A stretch of 64,000 nucleotides of DNA from positions 544,001 through 608,000 of the forward strand of contig CAWFDF010000004.1 of assembly GCA_963814585.1 (NCBI GenBank). Reading direction: 5' to 3'. Under the pieces are notes generated by a model, which was not told where the DNA came from, did not search any database, and worked only from the letters and a program-made list of their open reading frames with translations. The position numbers and the translations under genes are program-made. The DNA comes from an uncultured delta proteobacterium (GTDB lineage: Bacteria; Myxococcota; Myxococcia; Myxococcales; Anaeromyxobacteraceae). Shown here in pieces: positions 30,657 to 48,896 of the stretch; position 1 is the first letter of the stretch, and every line of letters begins with the position of its first letter.

Positions 30657-31505
30657 ATGGCGAAGAAGCGTCACCACTTCTCGGTCCGGACACGTGGAGG
30701 AGCATCAGGACCCGAGGATGAACCTGCCTTCCTGCCAGAGGTTGGACCGCGTCCCGGCGCGCGGTTCTACCAGGCCGAGTACCTCACGGCGCGCAGGCAC
30801 CTCGACAATCACGGAGGGGTCAACCTGGTCAGCGTCCTGGAGCTGGGCCGTCAGGCGCAAGGCTGGCTGACAGGCGAGGTGGGGATGGTGTGGGACCGGC
30901 CCGAGGTGCCTCGCGTGGCGTGCCTGGAGGACTGCGCCTGGTGCTGTTCACTTGCGGTGTCGGCGTGGCCCCTGGAGCTGATCGCCCTTGCCTCCTGGCT
31001 CGAGGAGCGCCGCAGTCCCCACGAGCTCGCGGAACTGCGGGTCCGGCTTCGCGCCGCGGTGGTCGAAGGCGATCGGCAGCGGGCCGCGGCCCCCAGCCGG
31101 GCCCGACGCGTCGCTTGCCCACTTCTCGCAGGAGCGAAGTGTAGTGCCTACGAAATGCGGCCGGCGGCGTGTGTCGGCTGGAACTCGGCGAACGCCTCGA
31201 CATGCCAAGCCTACACGGAAGGCGACGATGAAGCTCACTGCACCGTGGAGCCGCTCCGCTTCTTCTCCGCGCGGGCCGTGTCGGAGGCGGCCGCCGCGGC
31301 CGTGGCAGACTGCGGGGGCCCGGCCTTCGACAGCTCCGGGAATGGCCCGGGCGGCCCGCTGGACCTGTCGTCCGGCCTCCTGGCCGTGCTCGAGCTCGGG
31401 TCGGTCGGGGCGGCCGAGGCGTGGCTGGCTGGCTCGCCATTCCTCGCCGCGGCGCGAGAGCGAATGGAGCGGCCGCCGCCGTTCACCCCACAAGATGCAG
31501 GGTAG
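30657..31505 (+). CDS. YkgJ/FliB-like Cys-cluster (CxxxCxxCC) protein
   Basis: ACLEDCAWCC ... CPLL...CSAYEMRPAAC. Confidence 0.75.
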   Translation: MAKKRHHFSVRTRGGASGPEDEPAFLPEVGPRPGARFYQAEYLTARRHLDNHGGVNLVSVLELGRQAQGWLTGEVGMVWDRPEVPRVACLEDCAWCCSLAVSAWPLELIALASWLEERRSPHELAELRVRLRAAVVEGDRQRAAAPSRARRVACPLLAGAKCSAYEMRPAACVGWNSANASTCQAYTEGDDEAHCTVEPLRFFSARAVSEAAAAAVADCGGPAFDSSGNGPGGPLDLSSGLLAVLELGSVGAAEAWLAGSPFLAAARERMERPPPFTPQDAG

Positions 31506-31562
31506 GTGGAAGACTGGTCGGGGATAGGATGGTGGCAGGCCCCTCGGGAGCGCCGCCGATCA

Positions 31563-33860
31563 TCACCCGTGCGTGACCCGCATGTAGAGCAGCGGCAGCT
31601 TCTCGGGGAGGCGACCGATGTGGTCGACGACCATGTAGTTCCTCTCTCCGAAGATCTGCTTCACGTAGTCGTCCGCCTTGGGGTCCAGCGTCATGCAGAA
31701 GGTGTGGACCCCTTGCCTGGCCAGGGACTGGACCGCCTTCCTGGTGTCAGCCCTCAGGTACCTGGGATCGCGAACGTCGATGTCAGACGGCTCGCCGTCG
31801 GTGATCAGCAGCACGAGCTTGCGCGCAGACCGCCTGAGCTTCAGGAACTGACCGGCGTGACGCAGCGCAGCGCCCATCCGGGTCGACAGCCTCCCGCGCA
31901 TGCCCGCGAGCCGCTCCTTGGCGGCGTCGTCGTAGGGCCGGTCGAAGTCCTTGAGCCGGAAGTACTCGACCTCGTGTCGCCCGTTCGAGGAGAAGCCATG
32001 GATGGCGAACGGATCGCCAATCTGGCTCATGGCGTCTGCCAGGAGCACGGTGGCTTCTCGCGAGAGGTCGAGCACGGAGGTGAACGTGCCTGGCACCCTG
32101 TCGTTGGTTGACTCGGACAGGTCGAGGAGGACCAGCACGGCGAGGTCACGCCCGCGCCGGCCCACCTTGACGTGGACTCGCGGATCAGGCGTCTGCTGGC
32201 TGCGGATGTCTATCAGTGCGACGATCGCTGCGTCGAGGTCGAGGTCGTCGCCGTCCTGCTGTCGGCGGCGCTTGATGGGCTTCTGAACCTGGACCGCTCG
32301 CACCATGCTCCGGACCTGTTCCACCAAGGCGTGCCGTCGCAGGAGGATGTCCTCGACGGACGCGAGGGGGGCGTGCGGTGACAGCTTCTCGATGACGGTG
32401 GACCATGCCGGACGCTCGGCAGCGATGAGGTAGTCCCACTCCGGGTACCTCACCGGCGGAGACAAGGACTCGACCTCCGGCTCCACCGCGACCAATGACC
32501 GCTGGTCCTGGCCTTCCGCGGAAGGCGTCGGCTCCGATGGCTGGCCGACATCGAGGTCCACTGCGGCGGCACCAATCTCCGGACGAACGGATTCGAGTTC
32601 CCCGTGCTCCTGCCGGATCTGCTCCCGGTCCTCTTCGGAGAACTCCCAGAGATAGCGATTGTCGTCCCGGTAGCTCGGTTCGACGACGTAGGTCTTCGAG
32701 TTGAAGCGGACGCGCATCTGTCCGACGTCGTTGCCCAGGACCGAGGCGATCTGGCGGATGGCCGCGTAGTCCTCGATACTGGAGAGGCTTTCCTGGAAGA
32801 GCGTCCGGCCCTTGTTGACCCAGTAGTTGTCGTCCTCGTAGGAGGGGTCGATCAACGCGCGGGCCAGGCGGCGAGCGAGGGACTCGAACCCCAGGTCCCT
32901 GCTGGGAACGGCGGTGTGGAGGCGGCTCCAGAGACGGCGGAGCCCAGGATACTCGCGAATCAGCAGGTGCTCGACCCGTGCGTCCTCGAGGAGCGAGACG
33001 ACCGCAATGGCCATGGGCTTGAGCCTGCCTACGGGCTGACGAGCGGGCGAGAACCGCAGGTGGGCAAGCCCGTGGGCCAGCGCGGCGCGGTACTGGTCAT
33101 CTCCCGACGCGCTCACCGTGGGCGGATAGGCATCGGGGACATGAAGGGTCCTGGCCTCGAGAAACGGCCTGGGCTCCTGTTCGAGCTGGTTCCTTCCGAC
33201 GGATGCCCTCACCTGGATTGCCTGGTTCGACAAGGCCCGCAGGTACAAGCCGAGCCGACGCTGGACGTTGGCGAACAACGTCCCGTCGCTCTCTGCACGA
33301 AGGGCCGCCGCGGCCTCCTCATTCTCGAGCTTGAAATACGAATGGCGACCTTCCAGATCGTCCGGGTAGACACGAAGGCCGCGAACCATCCACCTTCTCA
33401 GGCCCGCGATGGTGAGGCGTCCAAGCAGGGTGTCCAGGCGAGAGAGAAGCAGGGAGAGTGCGGTCACGTCGATGCGTGAGCCCTCACGAACGAGCTGGAG
33501 ATAGGCGGAGAAGAGCTGTGGATCCGTGAGTCTTCGCGCGGCCAGGCCGCTGGCCGAGATGACCTGCTCGATGAAGTCGGGCTCGAATCCCTCGCGGAGC
33601 GACTGGGTCAACGCCAGCAGGCCGGCGACCGACTGGGGGCCGCTCTCTTCTGCGATGTCCGGCGCGGTCCGGATGAAGGCCGCCAGCGGCCCCATCGCTC
33701 CTACGGACTCAGCCAGCGTTCGAATGCCCTGCAGGTAGACGTCGATTCCCGTCACCCCGAACGCCTTGCAGGCCTCCGGCCAGGACGCGCGCACCACCTC
33801 CAGCGCCGGCGGAGAGAGGCCGGTGAGCGCGATCGCGTGTTGCTCGAAGTCGAGGCTCAT
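31563..33860 (-). CDS. cbbO: CbbO/NorD-family VWA adaptor, CbbO-like
   Basis: 765 aa; EDARVE, YRDDNRYLW, YPEWDY, MIDAS DLSES, STRMGAALRH, TDGEPSDID, LDPKADDYVKQIFG. Confidence 0.85.
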   Translation of the reverse strand: MSLDFEQHAIALTGLSPPALEVVRASWPEACKAFGVTGIDVYLQGIRTLAESVGAMGPLAAFIRTAPDIAEESGPQSVAGLLALTQSLREGFEPDFIEQVISASGLAARRLTDPQLFSAYLQLVREGSRIDVTALSLLLSRLDTLLGRLTIAGLRRWMVRGLRVYPDDLEGRHSYFKLENEEAAAALRAESDGTLFANVQRRLGLYLRALSNQAIQVRASVGRNQLEQEPRPFLEARTLHVPDAYPPTVSASGDDQYRAALAHGLAHLRFSPARQPVGRLKPMAIAVVSLLEDARVEHLLIREYPGLRRLWSRLHTAVPSRDLGFESLARRLARALIDPSYEDDNYWVNKGRTLFQESLSSIEDYAAIRQIASVLGNDVGQMRVRFNSKTYVVEPSYRDDNRYLWEFSEEDREQIRQEHGELESVRPEIGAAAVDLDVGQPSEPTPSAEGQDQRSLVAVEPEVESLSPPVRYPEWDYLIAAERPAWSTVIEKLSPHAPLASVEDILLRRHALVEQVRSMVRAVQVQKPIKRRRQQDGDDLDLDAAIVALIDIRSQQTPDPRVHVKVGRRGRDLAVLVLLDLSESTNDRVPGTFTSVLDLSREATVLLADAMSQIGDPFAIHGFSSNGRHEVEYFRLKDFDRPYDDAAKERLAGMRGRLSTRMGAALRHAGQFLKLRRSARKLVLLITDGEPSDIDVRDPRYLRADTRKAVQSLARQGVHTFCMTLDPKADDYVKQIFGERNYMVVDHIGRLPEKLPLLYMRVTHG

Positions 33861-33926
33861 TGCTGATGGACCCCGAAGGGAACGTGCGAAGGCAGAGAAG
33901 CCGCAGGACTCGAGTCGCCGAGAGCC

Positions 33927-34730
33927 CTAGAAGAATGCCTTGACCACCCCATCGAGGGCGTCGCGAGTATCAGCGTCGTCCGTGATCGGCCTGACCAGGG
34001 CGACCCGGCAGGCCGCGTTGGGATCGATGCCCTGGCGCATCAGCGAGCCCGCGTAGATCAGCATGCGTGTCGAGATCCCCTCGTCGAGGCCGTGCCCCTT
34101 GAGGCGACGTGACCGGCCGGCGATGCCGACCAGCTTCGCGGCAACAGCAGCCTCGACTCCGCTCTCATGGGCGACGATCTCGGCCTCGATCTCGGGCCCT
34201 GGGTAGTCGAAGTCGATGGCACCGAAGCGCTGCTTGGTGGACTGCTTGAGGTCCTTGAGAACACTCTGGTAGCCAGGGTTGTAGGAGATGGCGAGCTGGA
34301 AGTCCGGGTGGGCGTGGACCAGCTCGGCCCGCTTGTCCAGCGGCAGGACGCGCCGAGCGTCCGTGAGCGGGTGAATCACCACCGTCGTGTCCTGGCGTGC
34401 CTCCACGACTTCATCGAGATAGCAGATGCCGCCGTGGCGAGCCGCCAGGGTCAGCGGTCCATCCTGCCAGTGCGTTCCCGTGGAATCGAGCAGGAACCTG
34501 CCGACGAGGTCCGACCCGGTCATGTCCTCGTTACATGCGAGCGTGATGAGTGGCCGGCCGAGCTTCCAGGCCATGTACTCCACGAAGCGCGTCTTGCCGC
34601 AGCCGGTGGGACCCTTGAGCATCATCGGCATGCGCACTGCGTAGGCCGCCTCGTAGAGCTCGACCTCCTGGCCAATCGGCCGGTAGTAGGGCTCGTCGCG
34701 GATGAGGTACTGCTTGATGACGTCTTCCAT
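33927..34730 (-). CDS. cbbQ: CbbQ/NirQ/NorQ MoxR AAA+ ATPase, CbbQ-like
   Basis: [61 protein letters not shown]. Confidence 0.9.
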
Positions 34731-34793
34731 GGCGGTTTGAGGGCCCAGCGTACCCTCCGGGACTGCGGTCCAGGGGTGCTCAACACGGGATGC

Positions 34794-34836
34794 GGGCCCC
34801 TGCGACCGGACCGGACCGGACCGGCGGCAGGGGCCC
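34794..34836. other. Stem-loop between amiE and cbbQ with a (GACCG)x4 loop
   Basis: Perfect 10-bp inverted repeat gggcccctgc / gcaggggccc flanking gaccggaccggaccggaccg. Confidence 0.55.
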
Positions 34837-34887
34837 CATCACGCCCGACGCGCCGAGCCCCGGAACTCGCGGCCCGGCTTCGGGCAA

Positions 34888-35925
34888 CTAGCGATGCTTG
34901 GTGGACTCGTTGGGAATGCCCTCGATGGGGCACTCCTCGGTGCCAACCGTCGGGCGGGTGATGGCCTCGACCATCTTCCGCGTTCCCTCCGGGTCCGTGA
35001 TCCACTTCTTGTAGAAGTCATAGGGGCAGGCGGCCACTCCGGTGTCCCCTTCGCCGGAATTGATCTTGCCGGTGAAGCCCCGGTGCAGGAGCTTGAAGAG
35101 GTGGTTCTCGGACTGGCCGTTCTTGCGGGCGTCGCGGATGAGACTCTTGGAAAGCTCCGCGTACTGGATGCCCATGTCCTCCTCGCCGCACTCACCGAGG
35201 GTACGACCGTCGAATCCGATGATGGCAGAGTGTCCGAAGTAGGAGTACACGCCATCGAACCCCGACGCGTTCGCCACCGCGACGTAGGTGTTGTTCATCC
35301 AGGCCATGGTCTTGGCGACCATCACCTGCTGGTCCTTGGCGGGATACATGTAGCCCTGGCAGCGGATGATCAGCTCGGCGCCTCGCATGGCGCAATCGCG
35401 CCAGATCTCTGGATAGTTCCCATCGTCACAGATGATGAGGCTGATCCTGAGCCCCTTGGGGCCGTCCGAGACATAGGTGCAGTTGCCGGGATACCAACCC
35501 TCGATGGGCACCCAGGGCATGATCTTGCGGTACTTCTGGACGATCTCGCCCTTGTTGTTCATGAGGATGAGCGTGTTGTACGGCGCCTTCTTGGGGTGCT
35601 CCTCGTGGCGCTCGCCGGTGAGCGAGAACACGCCCCACACGTTGGCCTTACGACAGGCCTCCGCGAAGATCTGGGTCTCCTCGCCGGGTACGGCCGCCGC
35701 CGTCTCGTACATCTCCTTCGAGTCGTACATGATCCCGTGCGTGCTGTATTCGGGGAAGATGGCCAGATCCATCCCCGGCAGGCCCGTCTTCATTCCGACC
35801 AGCATCTCCCCGATCTTCCTGGCGTTGTCGAGGACCTCCTTCTTGGTGTGCAGCCTGGGCATCTTGTAGTTCACGACAGCAACTCCGACACAGTCCTTGC
35901 TGCTGCTGATGTCACCATGCCTCAT
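34888..35925 (-). CDS. amiE: Aliphatic amidase (nitrilase superfamily)
   Basis: [53 protein letters not shown] (Glu-Lys-Cys triad); GGAG RBS; ends NESTKHR. Confidence 0.97.
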
Positions 35926-35956
35926 GGCGTCTCTCCTTGCTCCTAGTGAAACAGCC

Positions 35957-36646
35957 CTACACCTTCAGATATGCGCTGATCCGATCTCGATCGACGTTCT
36001 GCCGGACATCTTCATGCACGAACTCTCCTCTCTCGATGATCAAGAAGCGGTCCGCAACCTCCAGGGCGAAGCTGAGGACCTGCTCCGAGACCACCACCGT
36101 GAGATCTCGCTCGACCTTGAGCCGGTTGAGGGTCGCAGCGATCTCCTTGATGATGGACGGCTGCAGGCCCTCGGTCGGCTCGTCGAGGAGCAGAACCTTG
36201 GGATTCGTCACGAGGGCTCGGGCTATGGCCAGCATCTGCTGCTGGCCACCTGACAGGTTTCCTCCTCGACGACTGCCCATTTCCTTGAGGACCGGGAAGA
36301 ACTTGTAGACGTACTCGGGCACCTCCTTCTCCCCCGTGCATTCCAGGCCCGTGCGGACATTCTCCTCCACGGTCAAGAAGGGGAAGATCATGCGGCCCTG
36401 CGGTACGTACGCCAGGCCCTGCGCCACCCGCTCGTAGCTGGGAAGCCGAGTGATGTCCTTCCCGGCGAGCGTCACCGTCCCGCCGCGCGCAGGGAGAATC
36501 CCAATCAACGCCTTGAGCAGGGTGGTCTTTCCCATCCCGTTCCGGCCCATGATGGCCACGGTCTCGCCCTGGCGGACGTCGAAGCTCGCGCCGCGGATGG
36601 CCTGGCTCTGGCCATAGCTGACGATGAATTTGTCGACTCTGAGCAT
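35957..36646 (-). CDS. urtE: Urea/amide ABC transporter ATPase UrtE
   Basis: [35 protein letters not shown]. Confidence 0.9.
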
Positions 36647-36654
36647 GTTCGAGA

Positions 36655-37389
36655 TCAGTGCCCCAGATACACTTCGATGACTCGCTCGTCGGCCTGCACC
36701 TGCTCCATCGGCCCCTCGCTCAGCAGCTTGCCCTGGTGCAGGACGGTCACCTTTCGGGCAATCGCCTGCACGAACTCCATGTCGTGCTCGATGACCACGA
36801 GCGACCGCCCCTTCGCGATCCTCTTGAGAAGGTCTGCCGTCTTCTCCCGCTCGCGGATGCTCATCCCGGCCACAGGCTCGTCCAGCAGCAGGAGAGCCGG
36901 CTCCTGCATGAGCAGCATCCCGATCTCCAGCCACTGCTTCTGGCCGTGGCTCAGGACGCCGGCCTTGGTCTGGAGATGCTCCGACAGGTAGACCTCGGCT
37001 GCCACCTCCTCGATCCGGTCGGTGACCTTCGAGCCACGCTTGAAGAAGAGCGAGCCGAGGACCCCCCTTCCCTGGGGATATGAGATCTCCAGATTCTCGA
37101 GGACCGTCAGGTCCTCGTAGGTGGATGGCGTCTGGAACTTGCGCCCCACGCCGGCGCGCACGATCTCGTGCTCGCCGAGTCTGGTGATGTCGATGTCGTT
37201 GAACCGGATTCGGCCGTGCGCCGGCCTCGTCTTCCCGCAGATCATGTCCAGCAGGGTCGTCTTTCCCGCCCCGTTCGGCCCGATGACGACGCGCAGCTCG
37301 TCCTGGTCGACCGACAGGGTCAGCGAGTCGACGGCGAGGAAGCCGTCGAAGGAGACGCTCAGATCCTCGATGGAGAGTATCGGCGTCAC
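36655..37389 (-). CDS. urtD: Urea/amide ABC transporter ATPase UrtD
   Basis: GPNGAGKTT, GRKFQTP, LSHGQKQWLEIGM, LDEPVAGM, EHDM. Confidence 0.92.
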   Translation of the reverse strand: MTPILSIEDLSVSFDGFLAVDSLTLSVDQDELRVVIGPNGAGKTTLLDMICGKTRPAHGRIRFNDIDITRLGEHEIVRAGVGRKFQTPSTYEDLTVLENLEISYPQGRGVLGSLFFKRGSKVTDRIEEVAAEVYLSEHLQTKAGVLSHGQKQWLEIGMLLMQEPALLLLDEPVAGMSIREREKTADLLKRIAKGRSLVVIEHDMEFVQAIARKVTVLHQGKLLSEGPMEQVQADERVIEVYLGH

Positions 37390-38438
37390 GTGGCGGTCTC
37401 CGGCCTCCGCCTCGCCTTGAGCTGGCCGAGGACCCCCGCAAAGCCGTTGGGCATGACCAGCACCGCGAAGATGAAGAGCCCTCCGATGAAGAAGAGCCAC
37501 ACCTCGGCGAAGTTCTCCGAGATCAGCGACCGGGCGAAGCCGACCACCAGCGCACCGGCGACCGCGCCAACGACGGAGGTCCGGCCACCCACGGCGGCGT
37601 AGATGACCATCTCCACCGAGGCGACCACTCCGATGAGCGTCGGGGTGATGAGACCGACCTGCAGCGAGTAGATGGCCCCGCCCACGGAAGCGAACAGCGC
37701 CCCGACGGTGAACGCGAAGGCCTTGAACAGCGCGGTGTCGTAACCGGAGAAGCGGACTCGATCCTCCCGGTCCCGGATGGCCACCAGGACCTTTCCAAGC
37801 CGGCTGCGAACGATGAAGGTGCTCGCGCCCATGACGATGAACAGCAGTCCGACCTCGATGAAGTAGAGGATCAACCTGGCTCGTTCGTTGTTGATGTCCC
37901 ACCCGAGGAAGGTCTTGAAGTCGGTGATGCCATTGGCGCCGCCGGTGTAGCCCTGCTGCCCCACCACCATCACCGTCGCGGCCAGGGCGAGTGCCAGCGT
38001 GATGATTGCAAAGTAGACGCCCCCGACCCGCTTCCGGAACTGGGCATAGGCGAGCACGAAGGCGATGACGCAGGGGACGACGATGATGGAGACCAGCGTG
38101 ATCGGGAGTGAGTGGTAGAGGTCCCACCACCAGGGCAGGGTCTCGGTGCTGCTCCAGACCATGAAGTCCGGGAGCTCTGGCGCCGACGCCTCGAGCTTGA
38201 GGAACATGGCCATGAAGTAGCCGCCGATACCGAAGAAGAGGCCTTGGCCAAGGCTCAGGATGCCGCCATAGCCCCAGGCGAGGACCACGCCGACAGCCAC
38301 GAACGCGAAGGCCAGGTACTTGCTCACCAGGCCGAGACGGAAGTCGTCCAGCGCCATGGGAAAGACAACCAGCAGGATCACCGCGAGAGCCAGGTATCCC
38401 CGAAACTCCGAGTCCCTGGCGAGACCCCGGAGCTTCAC
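37386..38438 (-). CDS. urtC: Urea/amide ABC permease UrtC
   Basis: WGYGGILSLGQG, LPDFMVW, GVYFAII, AIRDREDRVRFSGY; 4-bp overlaps with both neighbours. Confidence 0.92.
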   Translation of the reverse strand: MKLRGLARDSEFRGYLALAVILLVVFPMALDDFRLGLVSKYLAFAFVAVGVVLAWGYGGILSLGQGLFFGIGGYFMAMFLKLEASAPELPDFMVWSSTETLPWWWDLYHSLPITLVSIIVVPCVIAFVLAYAQFRKRVGGVYFAIITLALALAATVMVVGQQGYTGGANGITDFKTFLGWDINNERARLILYFIEVGLLFIVMGASTFIVRSRLGKVLVAIRDREDRVRFSGYDTALFKAFAFTVGALFASVGGAIYSLQVGLITPTLIGVVASVEMVIYAAVGGRTSVVGAVAGALVVGFARSLISENFAEVWLFFIGGLFIFAVLVMPNGFAGVLGQLKARRRPETAT

Positions 38439-39343
38439 TGCCGCACCTTGGAAGCAAACAGGCCGTTGGGTCGGAAGTAGAGGACCGTGATCACCGCCAG
38501 CAGGATCGAGACCCTCGCCATGGAACCACTGAGGAGGAACTCGAGGAACGACTGTGCCGACGCGATGACGAATCCCGAAGCGAAGGTGCCCACCAGGCTC
38601 TGCACGCCTCCGAAGATGACGACGATGAAGGAGTCGACGATGTACAGCTGTCCCGTGAGCGGGTTCGTCGAGCCGATCATCGTGAATGCGCTCCCGGCGA
38701 TCCCCGCCAGCCCCGAGCCGAGGGCGAAGGTCATCGCGTCGACGCGACCGGTGTTGATGCCCACCGCCCCGCTCATGGCTCGATTCTGCGTCACCGCTCG
38801 AATGCGCAGTCCCCAGCGGGTCCGGAAGAGCAGGAAGTACACTCCTCCCGATACCAGGAGGGTCAGCCAGATGATGAACATCCGGTTGAGGGGCAGCTGG
38901 ATTCCGGCGATCGGCTCCCAGGCGCCCGTGAGCCAGGTCGTCATCGGAACGCTGACTTCCTGCGGACCGAAGCCGGAGCGGTAGGCCTGCTGAAGGACCA
39001 GGCTCAGGCCCCAGGTCGCGAGGAGCGTGTCCAGCGGTCGATTGTAGAGGAAGCGGATGAACCCTCGCTCGAGGAGATAGCCGACGGCGAATGTCACCAG
39101 GAACGCCAGGGCGATTCCGAAGAAGATGTACAGCCCCATCAGCGACGGCAGGTGCTTGTTGAAGAAGGTCGCCGTGAAGTAGGTGACGTAGGCCCCCAGC
39201 GCCATGAGTTCGCCGTGGGCCATGTTGATGACGCCCATGAGGCCGAACACGATGGCGAGTCCCAGGGCCATCAGCACCAGGATCGTGAACAGGCTGATGC
39301 CCGAGAAGACCTGCATCGCCGCCACGTCGATGTCGAAATTCAT
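38435..39343 (-). CDS. urtB: Urea/amide ABC permease UrtB
   Basis: ALGLAIVFGLMGVINMAHGE, RPLDTLLATWG, IRAVTQNR. Confidence 0.92.
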   Translation of the reverse strand: MNFDIDVAAMQVFSGISLFTILVLMALGLAIVFGLMGVINMAHGELMALGAYVTYFTATFFNKHLPSLMGLYIFFGIALAFLVTFAVGYLLERGFIRFLYNRPLDTLLATWGLSLVLQQAYRSGFGPQEVSVPMTTWLTGAWEPIAGIQLPLNRMFIIWLTLLVSGGVYFLLFRTRWGLRIRAVTQNRAMSGAVGINTGRVDAMTFALGSGLAGIAGSAFTMIGSTNPLTGQLYIVDSFIVVIFGGVQSLVGTFASGFVIASAQSFLEFLLSGSMARVSILLAVITVLYFRPNGLFASKVRQ

Positions 39344-39405
39344 GTCGAGTGTCCGCTCATGGAGTGCCGTCCTCTCCGTCGCCTGGAGCGCGCTGTCCTC
39401 GTAGG

Positions 39406-39443
39406 TCCGGCGGCACCGTTCTACTGGAAGCGGTGCCGCCGGA
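39406..39443. other. Intercistronic stem-loop after urtA (mRNA stabiliser or attenuator)
   Basis: 13-bp perfect inverted repeat tccggcggcaccg / cggtgccgccgga. Confidence 0.65.
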
Positions 39444-39485
39444 GTTCTTCATGCCTGGGCCCGGACTCGTGGACCGCGGAGGACC

Positions 39486-40676
39486 TCAGAGCTTCGGGAA
39501 CGGATTGGGCTCGATGAGCGGCGACTCGTAGAGGATGTCGAACTGCCCGTCGGCGCGGGCGACGCCGACGCGCGCGTGCTTCCAGGTGTGGTGGTTGCTG
39601 GCGTGCAGCTTGATCTTCCCCTCGGGCGCGTCGAGCTCCAGGTTGGAGGAGGCGGCGATGACCTTCTGCACGTCGAAGCTCTTGGCCTTCTCGACCGCGA
39701 GCCGCCAGAAGTGAACGGCGGTGTAGCCACACTCCATGGGGTCGCCGACCACGCGCTCCTGACCGTACTTGGCCTTGATGGCCTTGACGAACTTGTCGTT
39801 GGTCGGGTTCTGCTGGCTCTGGAAGTAGCCCATGCACGCCAGGTAGCCGACCGCGTTGTCCTTGCCGATCCCATCGATCTCGTTCTCCGAGACCACGGTC
39901 GAGAGCAGCGTCTGCTTGGCGCCGGAGAGTCCGGCCGCGTTGAGCTGCTTGAAGAACGCCACGTTGCTGCCCCCGACGACCGTGCTGTAGATGCAGTCGG
40001 GCTTCGCGGCCTTGATCTTGTTGATGATGGAGGAGAACTCCGTGTGGCCGAGGGGCGCGTACTCCTCGCCGAGCGTCTTGCCGCCGACTCGAGTGATGGT
40101 GGGCTTCGCGATCTTGTTGCAGGTTCTCGGGTAGATGTAGTCGGAGCCGACCAGGAAGAAGCTCTTGCCCCTGTTCTTCGCCATCCACTCGATGGAGGCG
40201 ATCACCGACTGCGTGGCCTCCTGCGCGGTGTACATGCAGTTCTTGGAGATCTCCTGCCCCTCGTAGTAGGTCGGGTAGTACAGGAGGCCCTTGTTCTGCT
40301 CGAAGACGGGCAGCACCGACTTGCGGGAGGCCGAGGTGTAGCAGCCGAACACGACGGGGACCTTGTCCCGAACCAGCAGCTTCTTCGCCTTCTCGGCGAA
40401 CGTCGGCCAGTCGCTGGCACCGTCTTCCACGATGGGCTCGATCTTTCGGCCCAGCACGCCGCCCATCGCATTGATCTCGTCGATCGCCAGCTTCTCGGCA
40501 TCGACGATGGCGGCCTCGGCCAAGGCGATGGTCCCTGTCAGGGAGTGCAGGATGCCGACCTTGATGACGTCTGCTGCGAGGCCGATCTTGGGAAAGAGAC
40601 CTGAGTACGAGACCGCCCCTGCGGCTACCAGCTTCCCGCCGATTTCCATGAAGCGACGTCGATTCATCTTGCCCAT
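39486..40676 (-). CDS. urtA: Urea/short-chain amide ABC substrate-binding protein UrtA, Tat-exported
   Basis: AAGGAG RBS; MNRRRFM twin-arginine signal; [41 protein letters not shown]. Confidence 0.92.
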   Translation of the reverse strand: MGKMNRRRFMEIGGKLVAAGAVSYSGLFPKIGLAADVIKVGILHSLTGTIALAEAAIVDAEKLAIDEINAMGGVLGRKIEPIVEDGASDWPTFAEKAKKLLVRDKVPVVFGCYTSASRKSVLPVFEQNKGLLYYPTYYEGQEISKNCMYTAQEATQSVIASIEWMAKNRGKSFFLVGSDYIYPRTCNKIAKPTITRVGGKTLGEEYAPLGHTEFSSIINKIKAAKPDCIYSTVVGGSNVAFFKQLNAAGLSGAKQTLLSTVVSENEIDGIGKDNAVGYLACMGYFQSQQNPTNDKFVKAIKAKYGQERVVGDPMECGYTAVHFWRLAVEKAKSFDVQKVIAASSNLELDAPEGKIKLHASNHHTWKHARVGVARADGQFDILYESPLIEPNPFPKL

Positions 40677-40755
40677 AGCCATCTCCTTGCCGTGGTTCAA
40701 CGGAGTGTCACCTGCCTGAGAGCATGCCTTGCTGCGCCGTGTGGCATTTCGTCGC

Positions 40756-40771
40756 TGCAAGACCGGGGCCG
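40756..40771 (-). promoter_or_regulatory. Candidate sigma54 promoter of the urt-amiE-cbbQO operon
   Basis: Minus strand CGGCCCCGGTCTTGCA = GG-N10-GC with TTGCA, 80 bp upstream of urtA and next to a sigma54 activator gene. Confidence 0.6.
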
Positions 40772-41035
40772 GGTAGGAGGACACCTGCTCGTCGGCACGG
40801 AAGAGTGCCGGAAAGCGACCTAAGTCACGGCCATTGGGCTGGCCAGTGCCGACCGCACTCACCGGAGCAGCGCTTGCCTTACGTGAGAGACACCGGGTCG
40901 TCCGGAGATGGATGACACACTTCTGTGTTGCGCCCCGGACGGGGGCCCTTGACTTCCGAAGCCCGGACTTTCAAGGTTTTGCTCCATGGTCAGTGTCCAG
41001 TAGGTGCTCAGCCCGGGGGGGAATGGAGCCTGCCG

Positions 41036-43213
41036 GTGAGCGGTCCAACACGCTTGGGTCTCCTGTATTCGTCGAGTGGCGCGACTGCCATCCCCGAGTC
41101 CGGCCTCCTCGAGGCCTCGCTCCTGGCGATCGATCGCTGCAACGTCGAAATGGGCACGGGATTCGAGCCCTTGGTCGCGGACATTCGTTCGGACCCAGCC
41201 ACCGCGGCGCATGCCGCTCATGAACTCAGGTCACAGGGCGCCAAGGTCCTGATTGGGTGTTACACCTCGGCGTGCCGTAAGGCGGTCATCCCGGTTCTCG
41301 AGGAATCGGGGGTTTCCCTCGTCTATCCGACCGTTTACGAGGGCGAAGAGGTGCATCCCCGTGTCTTCTACTTCGGCGCCGTACCCAACCAGACCGTGGA
41401 TCCCCTCCTCTCCTGGTCCGTCTCGCATCTGTCCAGGGATTTCCTCTTCGTCGGATCGGACTACATCTATCCGCGGTCGGTGAATCGGCAGGCCCGGGGC
41501 TTCGTCGAGGCGCTTGGGGGGCGGATCCTTCTCGACGAGTACTTTCCCCTCGGTTGCGAGGACTTCACCGCCTTCTTCCAGAGCGTGCGGATGCTGCGGA
41601 GCCGCCACCCGCCCGCGATCTTCTCCACCCTCGTCGGGAAGAGCATCCCGGCCTTCTACCGGCAACATCGCGAGCTGGGCCTGGGAAGCACCATCGTCAG
41701 TCCGATCACCTCCGAGGTCGAGTTCGGGTGCGTGGGGATCGACGCCGCCGCCGGCCACTACTTCGCGGACGGCCACCTGGAGAGCCCTGACGCGGCGCCT
41801 CGCGACGGCTTTGCCTCGCACTACCAGCGCCGGTTCGGCGACAGGCCGGTCAACGGGATGATGGCCGCCGTGTACGAGGCGATCATGCTTCTCGGCCGGT
41901 ACTTCCTCAATGCTCGAGCGAAGGGCTCGGCCGGCGCCAGGGCCCAGGGAAATCCGGTCGCTCATCTGCGCGCCCCTCACCACGAGACGCCGAGTGGTCG
42001 GGTCGTGCTCGATCCGCGGAGCCAGCACGCCTGGCTGTGGACGCGTGTCGCACGCGTCGGCCGCCGCGGCAAGATCGAGACCGTCTGGCGCTCGCCGGGG
42101 CCGACGCCACCGAGGCCGCTCGGGGACCGGCCCTGGGAGTCGGCGCCAGGGACAGTGCGGGTCCCCTCGGTAGGTGCACCCGACGACGATGCGTTCCGAG
42201 GGGTCCTGGGTCGCAGCGACGCCCTCGCACAGTGCGTGCGGACGGCTCGGATCGCCGCCCTCACATCGGCCCCGGTCCTGCTGACCGGAGAGACCGGCAC
42301 GGGGAAGGAGCTGTTCGCTCGCTCCATCCACCTCGCCAGTGACAGGAAGAAGGGTCCCTTCATCGCTGTGAACTGCGCTGCCATGCCCGCGCAGTTGATC
42401 GAGAGCGAGCTGTTCGGGTATGCGCCCGGCGCGTTCACTGGCGCTCGGCGCGAAGGAAGGAAGGGCAAGTTCGAGCTCGCCGCCCATGGAACGCTCTTCC
42501 TGGACGAGATCACGGAGATGCCCATCGAGTTTCAAGCCGTCCTGCTCAGGGCCCTCCAGGAGAAGACGATCGTGCAGGTGGGCGGCGGCCGCGAGATTGA
42601 AGTCGACGTCCGTGTGATCGCTGCGACCAACAGGGACATCGCCCCCGAACGAGAGGCGTCATCCGTGCTGAGGTCGGATCTCTACTTCCGCCTGAACGTC
42701 TTCCGGGTCGACATCCCTCCTCTCCGGCGTAGACCAGAGGACGTCCCGCTCTTCGTCGAGGCTGCCCTGTCCCGCTTCAACGCAAGGTACGGACGGTGCC
42801 TCTCCGTGACGCACGACGCCTTGGTCGCGCTCATGCGGTATGGATGGCCTGGCAATGTGCGTGAGTTGGAGAACCTGATCGAACGTGCGTTTCACCTGTG
42901 CACCGACGGGACGGAGATCGACCTTCACCACCTTCCAGCGGTGGTCGCCGCGGCGAGTTCGGTCGACACGTCCTCCACCGGTGCCGCCGCGCCGGGCGCC
43001 GTCGGGATCCACGCTCCGATGACGCGGGCCGAACCTGCCCTGCAAGTTGAAGCGGCCGCGACTCAGGAGAAGATCGAAATCTCACGGGCGATCGTGACGT
43101 CAGGGCACAACATGAGCCGCGCCTCACGCATGCTCGGGATCTCGCGGAGCAAGCTCTATCGCCGGCTGAAGGCCCTCAGTATCGCCGTTCCGGACCAGTT
43201 CGCGCCCAGGTAG
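41036..43213 (+). CDS. Sigma54-dependent activator with N-terminal AmiC-like amide-binding domain and C-terminal Fis HTH
   Basis: [32 protein letters not shown] with no signal peptide; [50 protein letters not shown] start inferred from a GGAG RBS. Confidence 0.92.
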
Positions 43214-43792
43214 CGGAAGTCGATCCCGAGGGCCCCTCGACCGGGCTTCGAATGCGATGGCACGGCCCCCTGGCCGATCTGGTGATCCCCCTGGCGGTGG
43301 CGATCGGACAGGGCCCTCTTCCGTGGCAGACGGAGGGATCTCGCATCGGTGGACGAGATCCGGGCGGTGGGGGATGCAGGTGCAGACCTCGGCTTGAGTG
43401 AGCCGCGCCAGCCAGGGTTCGCCTCGTCGAGCTTCTCCCGAAAGGGTGAGCGGGAGGCCTCTCGGCACCGGCACCTGTCCGGGCGGCGACACAGGACTGT
43501 CGCGCGCTGCTCCGCTCGAGCCGTATGAGGAGGGCCCGGGGCGTCCGACTCCCGTTGACCACGGCCGGGCGTTGGTCGGCGGACTGGCCGTGACTCCCAC
43601 CGTCCTTGGTGAGGTCGGGGAACCAGCAGCATGCTCCCGCCAGGGAACTGAAGAGGCGGACCGTTCCTGAGGGGTCTTCTTGATGGCGCGGTGCGTTGCC
43701 TGTTGCAGTGGAGGAATTCAACGGGGCTGGATTGGCTCCATTCCTGGCAGACCGGTCGGAGTCGCTTGCGCGCGATCGATTCGAAGCGCAGC

Positions 43793-44746
43793 ATGACAGC
43801 CCCAGTGGAGCCCACGGTCCTTCCTCGAGACAGCCCGATCTGGGCTGCGCGGGCGGTGTCTCCGACGCGCGCCGGACTCGCGGCAGGGGACCGGGCCTCG
43901 TCAGGCCCGCACCCCGCAGTCGGCGCCCAGGTTCTCCCCGCAGGTTCCGGGCGGCTCCGCTTCGCGAAGGTCGATGGGGCGTCCGCGCTCGTAGGGTGCC
44001 GCGCGGAGAGCCCGCTCAAGATCCTGGTGCCTCACCGCAGGGGCCGCTCGGCCTGGGCCTTCTTGACGACTCTCGGCGGCGGGCTGGTGGCCGGCGACCA
44101 TACGGAACTGCACGTGGAGGTGGGCGCCGGAGCGACGGCGCTCCTCGCCACCCAGGCCGAGACGAAGGTTTACCGCTCGCCCGGCGGGGCCGAGGCCAAG
44201 CAGGTGCTGCGGGCCCGGGTGGATCGCGGCGGAACGCTGGCGGTGATGCCCGATCCAGTCTCACCGTTCGCGGGAGCGCGCTATCGGCAGGAGCAGCGAT
44301 GTGAAATCGAGGATGGCGCCAGCCTGCTGCTCGTCGACGCGCTCGTGGCCGGCCGAACGGCGCGTGGCGAGCGCTGGGCATTCGAGAGCTACCGGAGTCG
44401 GACCGAGATCGCGACAGGGGGGACCCTGATCCTCGGTGAGGCCCTCTCGCTGGAGCCAAGGGTGGGGGCCTCCCTGGCCGATCAGATGGGACGCTACGAC
44501 GCGGTCGCCTTCGCCGCCGTCATCGGCCCCGCCTTCACCGCAGGCGCCTCCGCGCTGCTCGACCGATGGAGCCGGGCTCCCGTTGAGGTCGGCGCACCGC
44601 TCCTCTCCACGGTGAGCCCGCTCCGGGGTGGAGCGCTGATACGCGTCGCAGCGATCTCGGCGGAGCACCTCGCCCACTTCCTGCGGGGCGCTCTCTCCTT
44701 CGTGGCGGGGCCGCTCGGCGACGATCCCTTTCAGCGCAGATGGTGA
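43793..44746 (+). CDS. ureD: Urease accessory protein UreD
   Basis: [48 protein letters not shown]. Start uncertain. Confidence 0.88.
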
Positions 44747-44759
44747 ACGGAGGAAGCGA

Positions 44760-45521
44760 ATGCACCTCACACCTCGAGAGCTCGACAAGCTGACGCTCCA
44801 CCAGGCGGGTCACCTCGCTCAGAAGCGCCTCGCGCGCGGGCTGCGGCTCAACTACCCCGAGGCAGTCGCACTCCTGGCCACGCAGATCCTCGAGTTCATC
44901 CGCGATGGGCGCAGCGTGGCGGAGCTCATGGACGTCGGCCGGCACCTGCTCGGCCGACGCCAGGTCCTGCCCGGTGTTCCGGACCTGGTCACGGAGGTCC
45001 AGGTCGAGGGAACCTTCCCGGATGGTACGAAGCTGGTGACGGTCCACCACCCCATCGCGGCCGAGGACGGCGACCTGACGCTGGCGCTCTACGGTAGCTT
45101 CTTGCCCTCGCCGGATCTGGCCCGCTTTGGCGCCACCTCCGAGGACCTTCTGCCCGGGGCCATCGAGGCAGCACCTGGAGAGATCGAGCTCAACGAAGGG
45201 CGAGCGGCCATCTCCCTCCAGGTGACCAACACCGCCGACCGACCCATCCAGATCGGCAGTCATTACCACTTCATCGAGGCGAATCCATACTTGCGCTTCG
45301 ATCGCCGCAGGGCCTACGGACACCGCCTCGACATCCCGGCAGGCATGGCCGTACGCTTCGAACCCGGCGAGACCAGGACCGTCCAGCTCGTCCCCATCGC
45401 CGGGGATCAGGTCATTCGCGGCGGCAACGGCATCGCCACCGGGAAGGTCTCACCGGAGGGGCTGGAACGCGCCATGGAACGGGTTGGCTCAGGCAACTTC
45501 GCCCATGAGGAGGAGCGCTAG
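44760..45521 (+). CDS. ureA: Urease fused gamma-beta subunit
   Basis: [11 protein letters not shown]...RLNYPEA...[12 protein letters not shown] (gamma) followed by [12 protein letters not shown]...[14 protein letters not shown] (beta) in one ORF. Confidence 0.95.
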
Positions 45522-45523
45522 CC

Positions 45524-47239
<1,716 letters not shown>

Positions 47240-47246
47240 GGCCGGC

Positions 47247-47912
47247 ATGGAAGCCTCGCAGTTCCTGATCTGGCAAGTCGCCGACTCGGCCTTCCCCACC
47301 GGCGGCTTCGCGCACGCAAGCGGCCTTGAGGCTGCTGCGCAGCTTGGAGAGCTGCGCGGGCCGGAGGGACTTGCCCGCTTCGCAGAGGAAGCGCTCTGGA
47401 ACGCGGGGTCATTCGCCCTTCCCCTGGCCTCCGCTGCACACCGCGACGTCGCGGCGCTCACCGCTCTCGACGGTCGATGCGACGCCTATACGCCGTCGCA
47501 GGTCGCCAACCGGGCGAGTCGGGCGCAGGGACAGGCGCTCCTTCGCACGGCCGCTGCAGCCTTCGAAGGCCCCGCAAGGGACCTGGCCGAGCGCGTCCGG
47601 CGAGAGCAGCTCGCCGGGCATCTCGCTCCGATGACCGGCGCCGTGCTCCGGGTGCTCGGAATCCCGATCGCCGTGGCCCAGCGCCTGGTCCTGCACGTGG
47701 CGATGCGCGGCGTCCTGTCGGCAGGGGTTCGCCTCGGGCTGGCCGGTCCGCTGGAGGCCCAGCGCATCCAGTCACGTCTTGGAGCCAGGGCCGACGAGGT
47801 GATCGCGACGTTCGGGCTCCTCGGCGCGGAGGAGGCGGCGCAATCGACGCCGCTGCTCGACATCCTTCAGGGACATCAGGACAGGCTCTATTCCCGACTC
47901 TTCCAGAGCTGA
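47247..47912 (+). CDS. ureF: Urease accessory protein UreF
   Basis: [34 protein letters not shown]. Confidence 0.92.
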
Positions 47913-47928
47913 GCACTTGGTCTTCGAC

Positions 47929-48669
47929 ATGATGACACGCGAGGTGAACGCAGCATCGCCACCGGCCGACAGACAGGCTCACGGCGGGCACGATCAGCCC
48001 GCCTCGCCTGGGAGCTTCCGGGGGCGGGAGCCCCCGCTGCAGCGTGACCTGGCGCGGCGAGCCTTCACGGTCGGAGTGGGGGGGCCGGTGGGAAGCGGCA
48101 AGACAGCCCTGGTCCTCGCGCTGTGCCAGCGCCTTCGGGACGCGATGAGCCTGGCGGTGGTGACGAACGACATCTTCACCCGCGAGGACGCCGAGTTTCT
48201 CGTCCTCCACGATGCGCTCGATCCGTCCCGCATCCGCGCCGTCGAGACCGGCGGCTGCCCGCACACCGCCATCCGGGAGGACGCCTCGGCGAACCTGCTC
48301 GCGCTCGAAGTCCTGAACGAGCAGCATCGGCCCGACCTGCTGCTCATCGAGTCGGGTGGCGACAACCTGGCCGCGCACTTCAGCCGCGAACTCGCGGACT
48401 ACACGGTTTACGTGATCGATGTGGCCGGCGGCGACAAGGTCCCCCGCAAGGGAGGCCCAGGCATCACGCAGTCGGACCTCCTCGTCATCAACAAGACCGA
48501 CCTCGCGCCGGCGGTCGGCGCCGATCTTTCCATCATGGAGCGCGATGCGCGGCGGATGCGTGGGGATGGGCCCTTCGTCTTCGCTCAAGTGACCCGGGGA
48601 GTCGGCGTCGCGGAGATTGCGGCACATGTCCTCCACGCATGGCAGCACGCCGTGGGGCTCACTCACTGA
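47929..48669 (+). CDS. ureG: Urease accessory GTPase UreG
   Basis: [33 protein letters not shown]. Start uncertain (47917-47944). Confidence 0.95.
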
Positions 48670-48896
48670 GGTCCCTGACGCGCCAGGAACTGGCGCCAGG
48701 CGGGCGTGACGAGCCGCTGCGCGAGGGAGTCACGTCGGGAGGCCTGTCACGGGAGGATTTCATCGTAGCCCGGCTGGAGGTCGCCGGTAACGTCGGCCGG
48801 GGTGGCTTGACACGCCGAGGCTCCCGCCGGGAGGTTGATGGCCCCGGCCGCCCGTCCACGGTGGCGCCCACCGCCCGGCGACGTTACTCCTCCAGG

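Follow-up and report, generated by a model that had tools for sequence, protein, structure and literature searches.

In the 64,000-nucleotide stretch of DNA analyzed here at its full length (the window; positions 544,001 to 608,000 of contig CAWFDF010000004.1 from an uncultured delta proteobacterium), the aliphatic amidase gene amiE is followed by two genes for an AAA+ ATPase (Q) and an adaptor protein (O), which can be assigned by sequence to the type of the Rubisco activase CbbQ/CbbO (CbbQO). Across the AmiE loci that were collected, a C-terminal His-Lys or His-Arg ending of the amidase (H[KR]) and the Q/O pair are present together and missing together. It is likely that AmiE is the client of Q/O and is recognized through its tail, and amiE-Q-O would then probably represent an enzyme with its own dedicated remodeller, which would free AmiE in a tail-dependent and ATP-driven manner. 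That the job is the reactivation of inhibited AmiE, as against assembly or control, is proposed more tentatively. The system is probably a so far unstudied repair or activation system for an enzyme unrelated to Rubisco. The features concerned are the following.

34888..35925, minus strand: amiE, coding for an aliphatic amidase from the nitrilase superfamily with 345 amino acids (NF009802, CN_hydrolase domain); proposed client
34891..34896, minus strand: C-terminal His-Arg codons of AmiE (CAT CGC, then TAG); proposed recognition tag
34731..34887, minus strand: amiE-cbbQ spacer, 157 nt, with a strong G+C-rich hairpin (RNA folding)
33927..34730, minus strand: cbbQ-type MoxR AAA+ ATPase (Q), 267 amino acids (AAA_5 + CbbQ_C); proposed motor
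31563..33860, minus strand: cbbO-type adaptor (O), 765 amino acids, with a C-terminal VWA domain and an intact MIDAS (metal ion-dependent adhesion site)

The original prediction, made from the sequence of the window, described amiE, cbbQ and cbbO as consecutive and co-oriented behind urt genes, and the open reading frames (ORFs) on the minus strand are arranged in this way. AmiE matches the NCBIfam aliphatic amidase model NF009802 with 719 bits (cut-off 427) and the PDB entries 2plq and 2uxy with 657 and 638 bits, respectively, and its Glu-Lys-Cys triad (E59, K134, and C166) is invariant in 20 relatives. The predicted His-Arg ending was read at 34888-34896 as CAT CGC TAG. The protein ends in ...KHR, with His encoded at 34894-34896, Arg at 34891-34893 and the stop codon at 34888-34890, and this end lies 157 nt ahead of Q, with the gene of the proposed client directly upstream. 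The Pfam domains AAA_5 and CbbQ_C were found in Q at 104 and 117 bits, and its translation contains an intact Walker A (GPTGCGKT) and Walker B (LDEV) motif as well as both strings named as CbbQ-style, EYMAWKL and ACNEDMT. The VWA domain of O comprises residues 575-741 of the 765. The protein contains the string YRDDNR expected of a CbbO-like protein, and its MIDAS residues D580, S582, S584, T660, and D688 are (near-)invariant in 20 O relatives.

The C-terminal tail of AmiE and the presence of Q and O

According to the relevant passages of PMC4660213, the large subunits of Rubiscos which are encoded together with cbbQ and cbbO bear a C-terminal HK/R motif that is absent from other Rubiscos. The loss of one or two C-terminal residues, or the addition of a single alanine, ends activation as well as the stimulation of the ATPase; the penultimate His is critical, while the final residue is replaceable (PMC4660213). 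Furthermore, the MIDAS of CbbO is required, and an acidic residue at the surface of Rubisco is engaged (PMC4660213). The rule on the C-terminal motif is repeated in a passage of PMC8718961. As a positive control, the tails of 20 RbcL proteins linked to Q were read in this study, and all 20 end in H[KR], in line with the rule from which the original prediction had started.

The AmiE loci were gathered in four sets. Set (a) consists of the best 80 of more than 594 genome stretches matching the AmiE of the window (84-91% identity). Set (b) holds 24 plasmid loci spanning 69-85% identity, taken from 66 AmiE-bearing plasmid records, plus three more, and set (c) three AmiE loci from a genome sample of one proteobacterial class, which is described below. 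Set (d) comprises 401 genomes sampled evenly across the phylum, centred on one AmiE-bearing genome that is itself among them; here, Q was searched genome-wide and the AmiE tails were read. AmiE was found in 24 of these 401 genomes, and 23 were usable. A homologue search with AmiE listed only proteins with at least 82% identity, and no diversity was gained. Two rows were dropped as the same loci as others (L198 = L016, L141 = L056) and L207 for an in-frame TGA in amiE, and loci with short flanks lacking Q/O were set aside (L005, L019, L046, L058, L059, and L103).

In the resulting 126 informative AmiE loci, window included, an H[KR] tail together with Q/O was found 92 times, an H[KR] tail without Q/O once, another tail with Q/O twice and neither of the two 31 times. 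Q/O is thus nearby for 92 of the 93 H[KR]-ended AmiE vs. 2 of the 33 with other tails. In the evenly drawn set alone, Q is adjacent in 6/6 H[KR] AmiE vs. 2/17 others (Fisher p 2.8e-4). The expected enrichment of H[KR] in AmiE accompanied by Q/O was therefore recovered, and so was the recurrence of the synteny in other genomes, since 94 of the 126 loci, drawn from alpha-, beta-, and gammaproteobacteria and from the genome of the window, have Q and/or O close to amiE. Based on these comparisons of sequences, the link between tail and machine in amidases is well supported.

The few rows deviating from the rule were inspected individually. L010 is the sole H[KR] row without nearby Q/O; a CbbQ-type pair is located on another contig of the same metagenome-assembled genome (MAG). 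In L077, the O-Q pair lies about 9-11 kb from amiE on the same contig, past the urease genes, and the locus was hence counted as Q/O-positive. The two loci with another tail and Q/O fit the tail rule, because AmiE of L016 ends in ...EHA and keeps the critical His, and the Q/O of G339 follow an rbcL whose product ends in ...SHR, while the AmiE gene of G339 adjoins AmiB. In two genomes with AmiE ending in ...NY, which were searched as a whole, no CbbQ-type gene was detected. Among the 93 distinct H[KR] AmiE, the sequence is hypervariable at positions -3 to -7, and a linker of 6 to 10 residues follows G[IL]P; H[KR] is always terminal.

For a phylogenetic control, a quick AmiE tree was built minus the last 12 columns. 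On this tree, Q/O requires a minimum of 8-9 changes and the tail a minimum of 8. In the best AmiE tree, six groups lack Q/O, each of them has lost the tail, and each is sister to a group with H[KR] and Q/O (group without Q/O vs. sister with Q/O):

AmiB/Bacillus clade vs. L088
L108 vs. L099
L190 vs. L146
AAK/ADH/DPR group vs. L203
NY clade vs. Bradyrhizobium-type group
L090 and L102 vs. L180

No group points in the opposite direction, and L010 is a tie. Six of six concordant pairs correspond to 0.03 in a two-sided sign test (hand arithmetic). Using treekit, the first set gave five pairs (four the same way, none opposite, one unchanged; p 0.125). The paired phylogenetic evidence is consistent but underpowered.

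A separate observation concerns a megaplasmid of Acidithiobacillus caldus (L088:8001-12035). Its AmiE ends in ...CRHK, O is apparently split into ORFs of 226 and 338 amino acids flanked by insertion sequence elements, and Q was searched for in this locus and not detected. It looks like a decaying module in which the tail is still kept.

Family of Q and O and clients in the host genome

A sample of 201 genomes of one proteobacterial class was used to place Q and O. CbbQ_C genes were found in 85 of these genomes, and Rubisco is present in 73 of the 80 CbbQ_C-bearing genomes which were re-searched. The 60 Q neighbourhoods taken from this sample comprise 20 that are linked to rbcL, 3 linked to amiE and 37 with neither of them. 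The 20 rbcL-linked Q share 69-76% identity with the Q of the window vs. 49-61% for the 37 other CbbQ_C proteins. One of the latter (L152) sits in a norC-norB cluster according to Pfam; the remaining 36 are unlabelled, the NCBIfam scan of their neighbours being mostly blank. Against solved structures, Q scores 449 bits with 5c3c and 421 bits with 6l1q, both CbbQ, vs. 313 and 303 bits with the NorQ entries 9qh4 and 9qhd.

The O protein leads to the same assignment. In tblastn, most of the 20 Rubisco-linked O match it across residues 1-763 (33-44% identity), its N-terminal part of about 550 residues thus being homologous to the CbbO counterpart, whereas the NorD-like partners of the other Q align in the VWA part only, starting from about residue 472 or 596. 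Of 109 positions that are conserved to at least 90% in 20 AmiE-linked O, 64 show an identical residue in 90% or more of the 18 Rubisco-linked O. The positions common to both clients include AHxxAH (259-267), EDARVE (292-297), YRDD (397-400), and the MIDAS residues. In AmiE-linked O, conservation extends to a block at about residues 377-386 (NDxGQxR..F) that varies in Rubisco-linked O. By bit scores, identities and the full-length alignment of O, the pair can be classified as CbbQO-type and not as NorQD-type, as the original prediction had proposed from short signatures.

The search was also started from Q. On plasmids, 257 records match Q at E <=1e-60. Among the matches listed, 31 plasmid records have a Q with at least 62% identity, of which 27 are by amiE and 4 by Rubisco or carboxysome genes. 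In the 27 amiE-linked cases, amiE lies within about 8.5 kb, as judged by coordinates in 25, by annotation in one and by tblastn in one. Of the 4 Rubisco/carboxysome records, those of Nitrobacter and one Cereibacter were verified, and two further Cereibacter records were assigned by listing.

In a quick Q tree, the Rubisco Q clade is nested inside the AmiE-linked Q with a support of 98. In the approximately unbiased (AU) test, AmiE-linked Q as one group was not rejected (p-AU 0.51); the tree constrained in this way had a log-likelihood higher by 2.0 units. The candidate order of events in which Rubisco Q descended from amidase Q was dropped on this result, and the stars of the quick trees are distrusted because the AU test disagreed with the nesting.

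The host assembly has a size of 4.34 Mb in 18 contigs and is 91.7% complete, which limits the absences reported for it by the possibly missing 8%. It contains one CbbQ_C gene and one O homologue. The window had been described as free of Rubisco and NO reductase, and this extends to the whole assembly. No match to RuBisCO_large was found in the 91.7% complete assembly, and the AmiE upstream of Q is not a Rubisco. NorB was likewise not found in the assembly, its three COX1 homologues being CtaD, CtaD, and CcoN. A Rubisco or Nor client elsewhere, which could have explained the pair, is thus missing from the assembled genome, and the genome is without another candidate client of known kinds. Among the island proteins checked for a terminal H[KR], none besides AmiE has one. 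Taken together, synteny, tail enrichment and the absence of rival clients speak for the central idea of the original prediction, according to which CbbQO may serve a nitrilase-fold amidase through its tail.

Several further members of the family stand apart from this picture. In L210:6801-10849 (G339:C1), a CbbQO-type pair with a Q 71% identical to that of the window and an O of 738 amino acids adjoins a divergent LysR-type ORF, and neither rbcL nor amiE was found within the 16 kb examined. The loci L140 and L151 come from sulfur-oxidiser-like genomes and hold CbbQ_C genes from the 'other' clade beside aprBA (adenylyl-sulfate reductase) and HdrA/Qmo-like genes; for CbbQ_C genes of this type, O was undetected in some cases. 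Judging from the neighbourhood, these gene products may be further clients of the CbbQ_C family. L006, L008, and L012 encode AmiE proteins 88-89% identical to that of the window next to a Q with an identity of only 52-53%. In the Q tree, the branch of these Q is very long (1.44), and their O aligned only in part; the sub-lineage evolves at an unusual speed. Finally, plasmid p3 of Brucella anthropi carries a second Q/'NorD' pair followed by a 382-amino acid hypothetical protein (L089:1-3464), 4.5 kb upstream of its amiE-Q-O module, and thus two CbbQ-family systems on 96 kb.

Proposed mechanism and alternative explanations

The proposed mechanism is modelled on Rubisco CbbQO (PMC4660213), from which the Q6O1 stoichiometry, the binding of a carboxylate by the MIDAS, the dependence on the tail and the ATP-driven release were inferred. 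A CbbQ hexamer carrying one CbbO adaptor would engage the AmiE hexamer, and this engagement would need the extreme C-terminal His-Arg of AmiE. An acidic residue on the surface of AmiE would probably be bound by the MIDAS of CbbO. ATP hydrolysis would then loosen AmiE and thereby free a blocked or dead-end active site. AmiE might be blocked by an acyl or carbamoyl adduct that forms on Cys166 and is hydrolysed slowly or, alternatively, by a tight-binding amide analogue imported by the neighbouring transporter. Urea inactivates the Pseudomonas amidase in a time-dependent manner.

Structure prediction was also applied. For residues 121-765 of O with the full AmiE, complex prediction from 20-row alignments gave scores of 0.01 and 0.00 (mark 0.32), which were obtained without controls and count neither way. 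An AlphaFold2 model of AmiE from a shallow 20-row alignment has a mean pLDDT (predicted local distance difference test) of 53.9, with residues 315-345 below 50, and is uninformative on the exposure of the tail.

Several points weigh against AmiE as a tail-addressed client. We know of no need of AmiE for an activase, and in many lineages the enzyme works in the absence of Q/O, with or without the Clp-like ATPase AmiB. The tail is kept in L010 with no Q/O within 6 kb. Most loci were gathered by similarity to the AmiE of the window, which over-samples the H[KR] clade, and AmiE loci are related to each other, so that raw counts overstate their independence. The six sister pairs were read off a quick tree, whose kind of supports proved unreliable for the Q tree; if only starred branches are used in treekit, 3-4 independent pairs with a p of 0.25 are left in the enlarged set. 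In addition, urease genes are part of the island and in some loci lie between amiE and Q/O.

The alternative closest to the proposed one keeps AmiE as the client and makes Q/O a chaperone of assembly or maturation, which builds the interlocked hexamer or exchanges its subunits. Other MoxR/VWA pairs do mature enzymes, as NorQD inserts iron into NO reductase (PMC13036017, in the passage concerned), the authors of a plasmid paper of 2026 guess at 'assembly/activation' (PMC13209695), and the evidence from tail and synteny fits equally well, since sequence cannot separate assembly from repair. However, AmiE contains a Cys-Glu-Lys triad and offers no metal cofactor for insertion, and Q and O resemble the Rubisco repair machine more closely than they do NorQD. 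Crystals of AmiE from lineages lacking Q/O contain the hexamer (PDB 2plq and 2uxy), so that help with assembly is not generally required. This function is regarded as rather unlikely. A negative role, in which Q/O would disassemble the hexamer or hand AmiE over to a protease when amides run out, seems clearly improbable. AAA+ machines directed to their targets by a tail are a typical feature of degradation systems, and the Clp-like AmiB occupies the same position in other lineages, but in the loci examined CbbQ has no protease partner, and Q/O are co-transcribed with the very enzyme they would destroy.

Instead of AmiE, Q/O could serve another product of the island, namely the nickel enzyme urease or the transporter, with the AmiE tail being a functionless marker of the lineage. 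The genes ureD-AB-C-F-G lie in the same segment of lower G+C content, in L098 and L077 urease genes are located between amiE and a convergent O-Q pair, and VWA/MoxR pairs often act in metal insertion. Nevertheless, only 22 of 80 Q/O-positive loci include UreC, the urease and transporter proteins of the window lack an H[KR] ending, the tail is gone in each group without Q/O, and close plasmid relatives of Q are beside amiE in 27 of the 31 records listed. Moreover, a fixed H[KR] behind hypervariable positions -3 to -7 and a linker of variable length is unexpected for a neutral marker, and a service to urease or transporter is given only a small chance. Least probable, to a degree that makes it almost negligible, is that Q/O travels with a mobile urea/amide island as a passenger and is of no service to AmiE in this host. 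The G+C content of the segment (64-69% in a genome of 73-78%) and an AmiE up to 91% identical to that of Burkholderiales MAGs would agree with a passenger, but both ORFs are intact with preserved Walker motifs and MIDAS, and the arrangement is kept across classes. The reading of amiE-Q-O as an amidase with its own tail-addressed remodeller is thus preferred.

Known systems, significance and neighbouring genes

The nearest known system is Rubisco CbbQO, with Q1O1 and Q2O2 of Acidithiobacillus ferrooxidans and CsoCbbQ/O of Halothiobacillus as described examples (passages of PMC4660213 and PMC8718961; 5c3c, 6l1q). It consists of the same two proteins, including an adaptor of about 770 amino acids which is homologous over its full length and has an intact MIDAS, and it shares the gene order client-Q-O and a client ending in H-K/R. 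In contrast, the client here is a nitrilase-fold thiol amidase in a genome without Rubisco, and the 377-386 block of O is conserved, unlike in Rubisco-linked O. NorQ/NorD (PMC13036017, in part; 9qh4, 9qhd) belongs to the same superfamily, being composed of a CbbQ_C-type AAA+ ring and a VWA protein, but NorB is missing from the genome and NorD-like proteins match O in the VWA part only.

A plasmid-borne amiE operon of Pseudomonas (Microorganisms 2026, PMC13209695) evidently contains the same system, as amiE is followed there by an AAA_5+CbbQ_C protein and a 'NorD-like' protein. In its relevant passage, the adjacency to amiE is mentioned in passing and assembly or activation is guessed; the C-terminal tail, the kinship with Rubisco activases and a survey are not mentioned in that passage. 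The original prediction knew of no characterised example, and a full-text literature search, which covered few subscription journals, found only this passing mention (PMC13209695). The order urtA-E, amiE, Q, O is annotated on plasmids, too.

In the amiEBCRS operon of Pseudomonas aeruginosa, an AAA+ gene coding for AmiB lies directly beside amiE, as Q does here (PMC12591593). AmiB is called 'poorly described' there, and a function as a chaperone has been hypothesized (PMC12591593). AmiB-type proteins contain AAA_2 and ClpB_D2-small, have a length of 350-377 amino acids and lack a VWA partner, whereas the ATPase of the window contains AAA_5 and CbbQ_C. By these domains, AmiB can be taken as a different machine in the same place as Q/O, and the occurrence of two unrelated ATPases at one position points to the amidase itself as the partner in need of help. 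An AmiB-type neighbour was present in 14 of the loci examined, and none of those 14 AmiE ends in H[KR]. The earlier statement that AmiE paired with the Clp-like AmiB lacks the tail had been made for Pseudomonas; it held for the AmiB loci of other genera, to which this count applies.

A G-[KQ]-E-[KR] motif was observed a few residues before the C-terminus of AmiB-linked AmiE (L188, L193, L195, L197, L204, L205, L103, and L091), with endings such as ...GKEKSAGA, ...PGKERQLG, and ...GKEKEASV. It may be the recognition tail of AmiB. Furthermore, in the amiE loci of Rhodococcus plasmids (L086:11103-14738, L093:9248-12828, and L094:11127-14707), amiE, an AmiC-like gene and marR are closely followed downstream by two large tubulin-like genes that enclose a small one; the Pfam matches to Tubulin and Tubulin_2 are weak.

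To our knowledge, CbbQO has so far been described only as a Rubisco activase. A second client of unrelated fold bearing the same two-residue tag would point to a general principle, the tail-addressed repair of enzymes by MoxR/VWA machines. The wider proposal, in which CbbQO is a general rescue machine working through a C-terminal H-K/R tag and AmiE is its second, widespread client, is speculative and somewhat doubtful at present. If it were true, AmiE would be a client in about a third of the AmiE-bearing Pseudomonadota, as counted in the evenly drawn sample. As with Rubisco, different lineages of AmiE would have taken on unrelated AAA+ helpers, either CbbQO with the HR tag or AmiB with its own tail. 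Aliphatic amidases are used in industry and are long-studied model enzymes. They would enter undescribed dead-end states in vivo and suffer from an unrecognised self-inhibition. AmiE would offer a simple, soluble and easily assayed client for the study of MoxR/VWA machines. It would also give a first way into the function of AmiB, a question that dates back to 1995.

The neighbouring genes in the window are the following.

35957..40862, minus strand: urt-like amide/urea ABC transporter genes upstream of amiE (ABC_tran x2, BPD_transp_2 x2, Peripla_BP_5/6)
40925..43213, plus strand: divergent regulator (Peripla_BP_5, Sigma54_activat, AAA_lid_14, HTH_8)
43691..48669, plus strand: urease genes ureD, ureAB (fused), ureC, ureF, ureG (UreD, Urease_gamma+beta, Urease_alpha+Amidohydro_1, UreF, cobW/UreG; Pfam)

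The urt-like set encodes two ATPases, two permeases and one binding protein and has the same orientation as amiE; its ORF starts are approximate because ORFs overlap at this high G+C content. Together with O, Q, amiE, the regulator and the urease genes, it forms a block at about 31.5-48.7 kb with a G+C content of 64-69% vs. 73-78% in the flanks and the genome. AmiE is up to 91% identical to AmiE of Burkholderiales MAGs (among the best 80 of more than 594 matching stretches). From its lower G+C content and this likeness the block looks acquired, and the region of about 31500-48700 probably represents a urea/amide island gained by horizontal transfer. The window contains no tRNA genes.

The spacer between amiE and cbbQ folds with -97.4 kcal/mol (z -3.28), and none of 200 shuffled sequences is equally stable. 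A terminator scan of the minus strand between the genes returned no site, the hairpin lacking a T-tract. Judging from the fold, it is possibly an attenuator or an element of transcript stability, and it might lower the expression of Q/O relative to AmiE or stabilise the amiE transcript. A search for the sigma-54 promoter consensus gave 16 matches vs. 18 expected, with no convincing -24/-12 site upstream of the operons. The regulator at 40925-43213 shows an AmiC-like periplasmic-binding fold fused to a sigma-54 activator AAA+ domain and a helix-turn-helix domain, unlike in proteobacterial loci, where the AmiC-like and the ANTAR (AmiR-like) proteins are separate.

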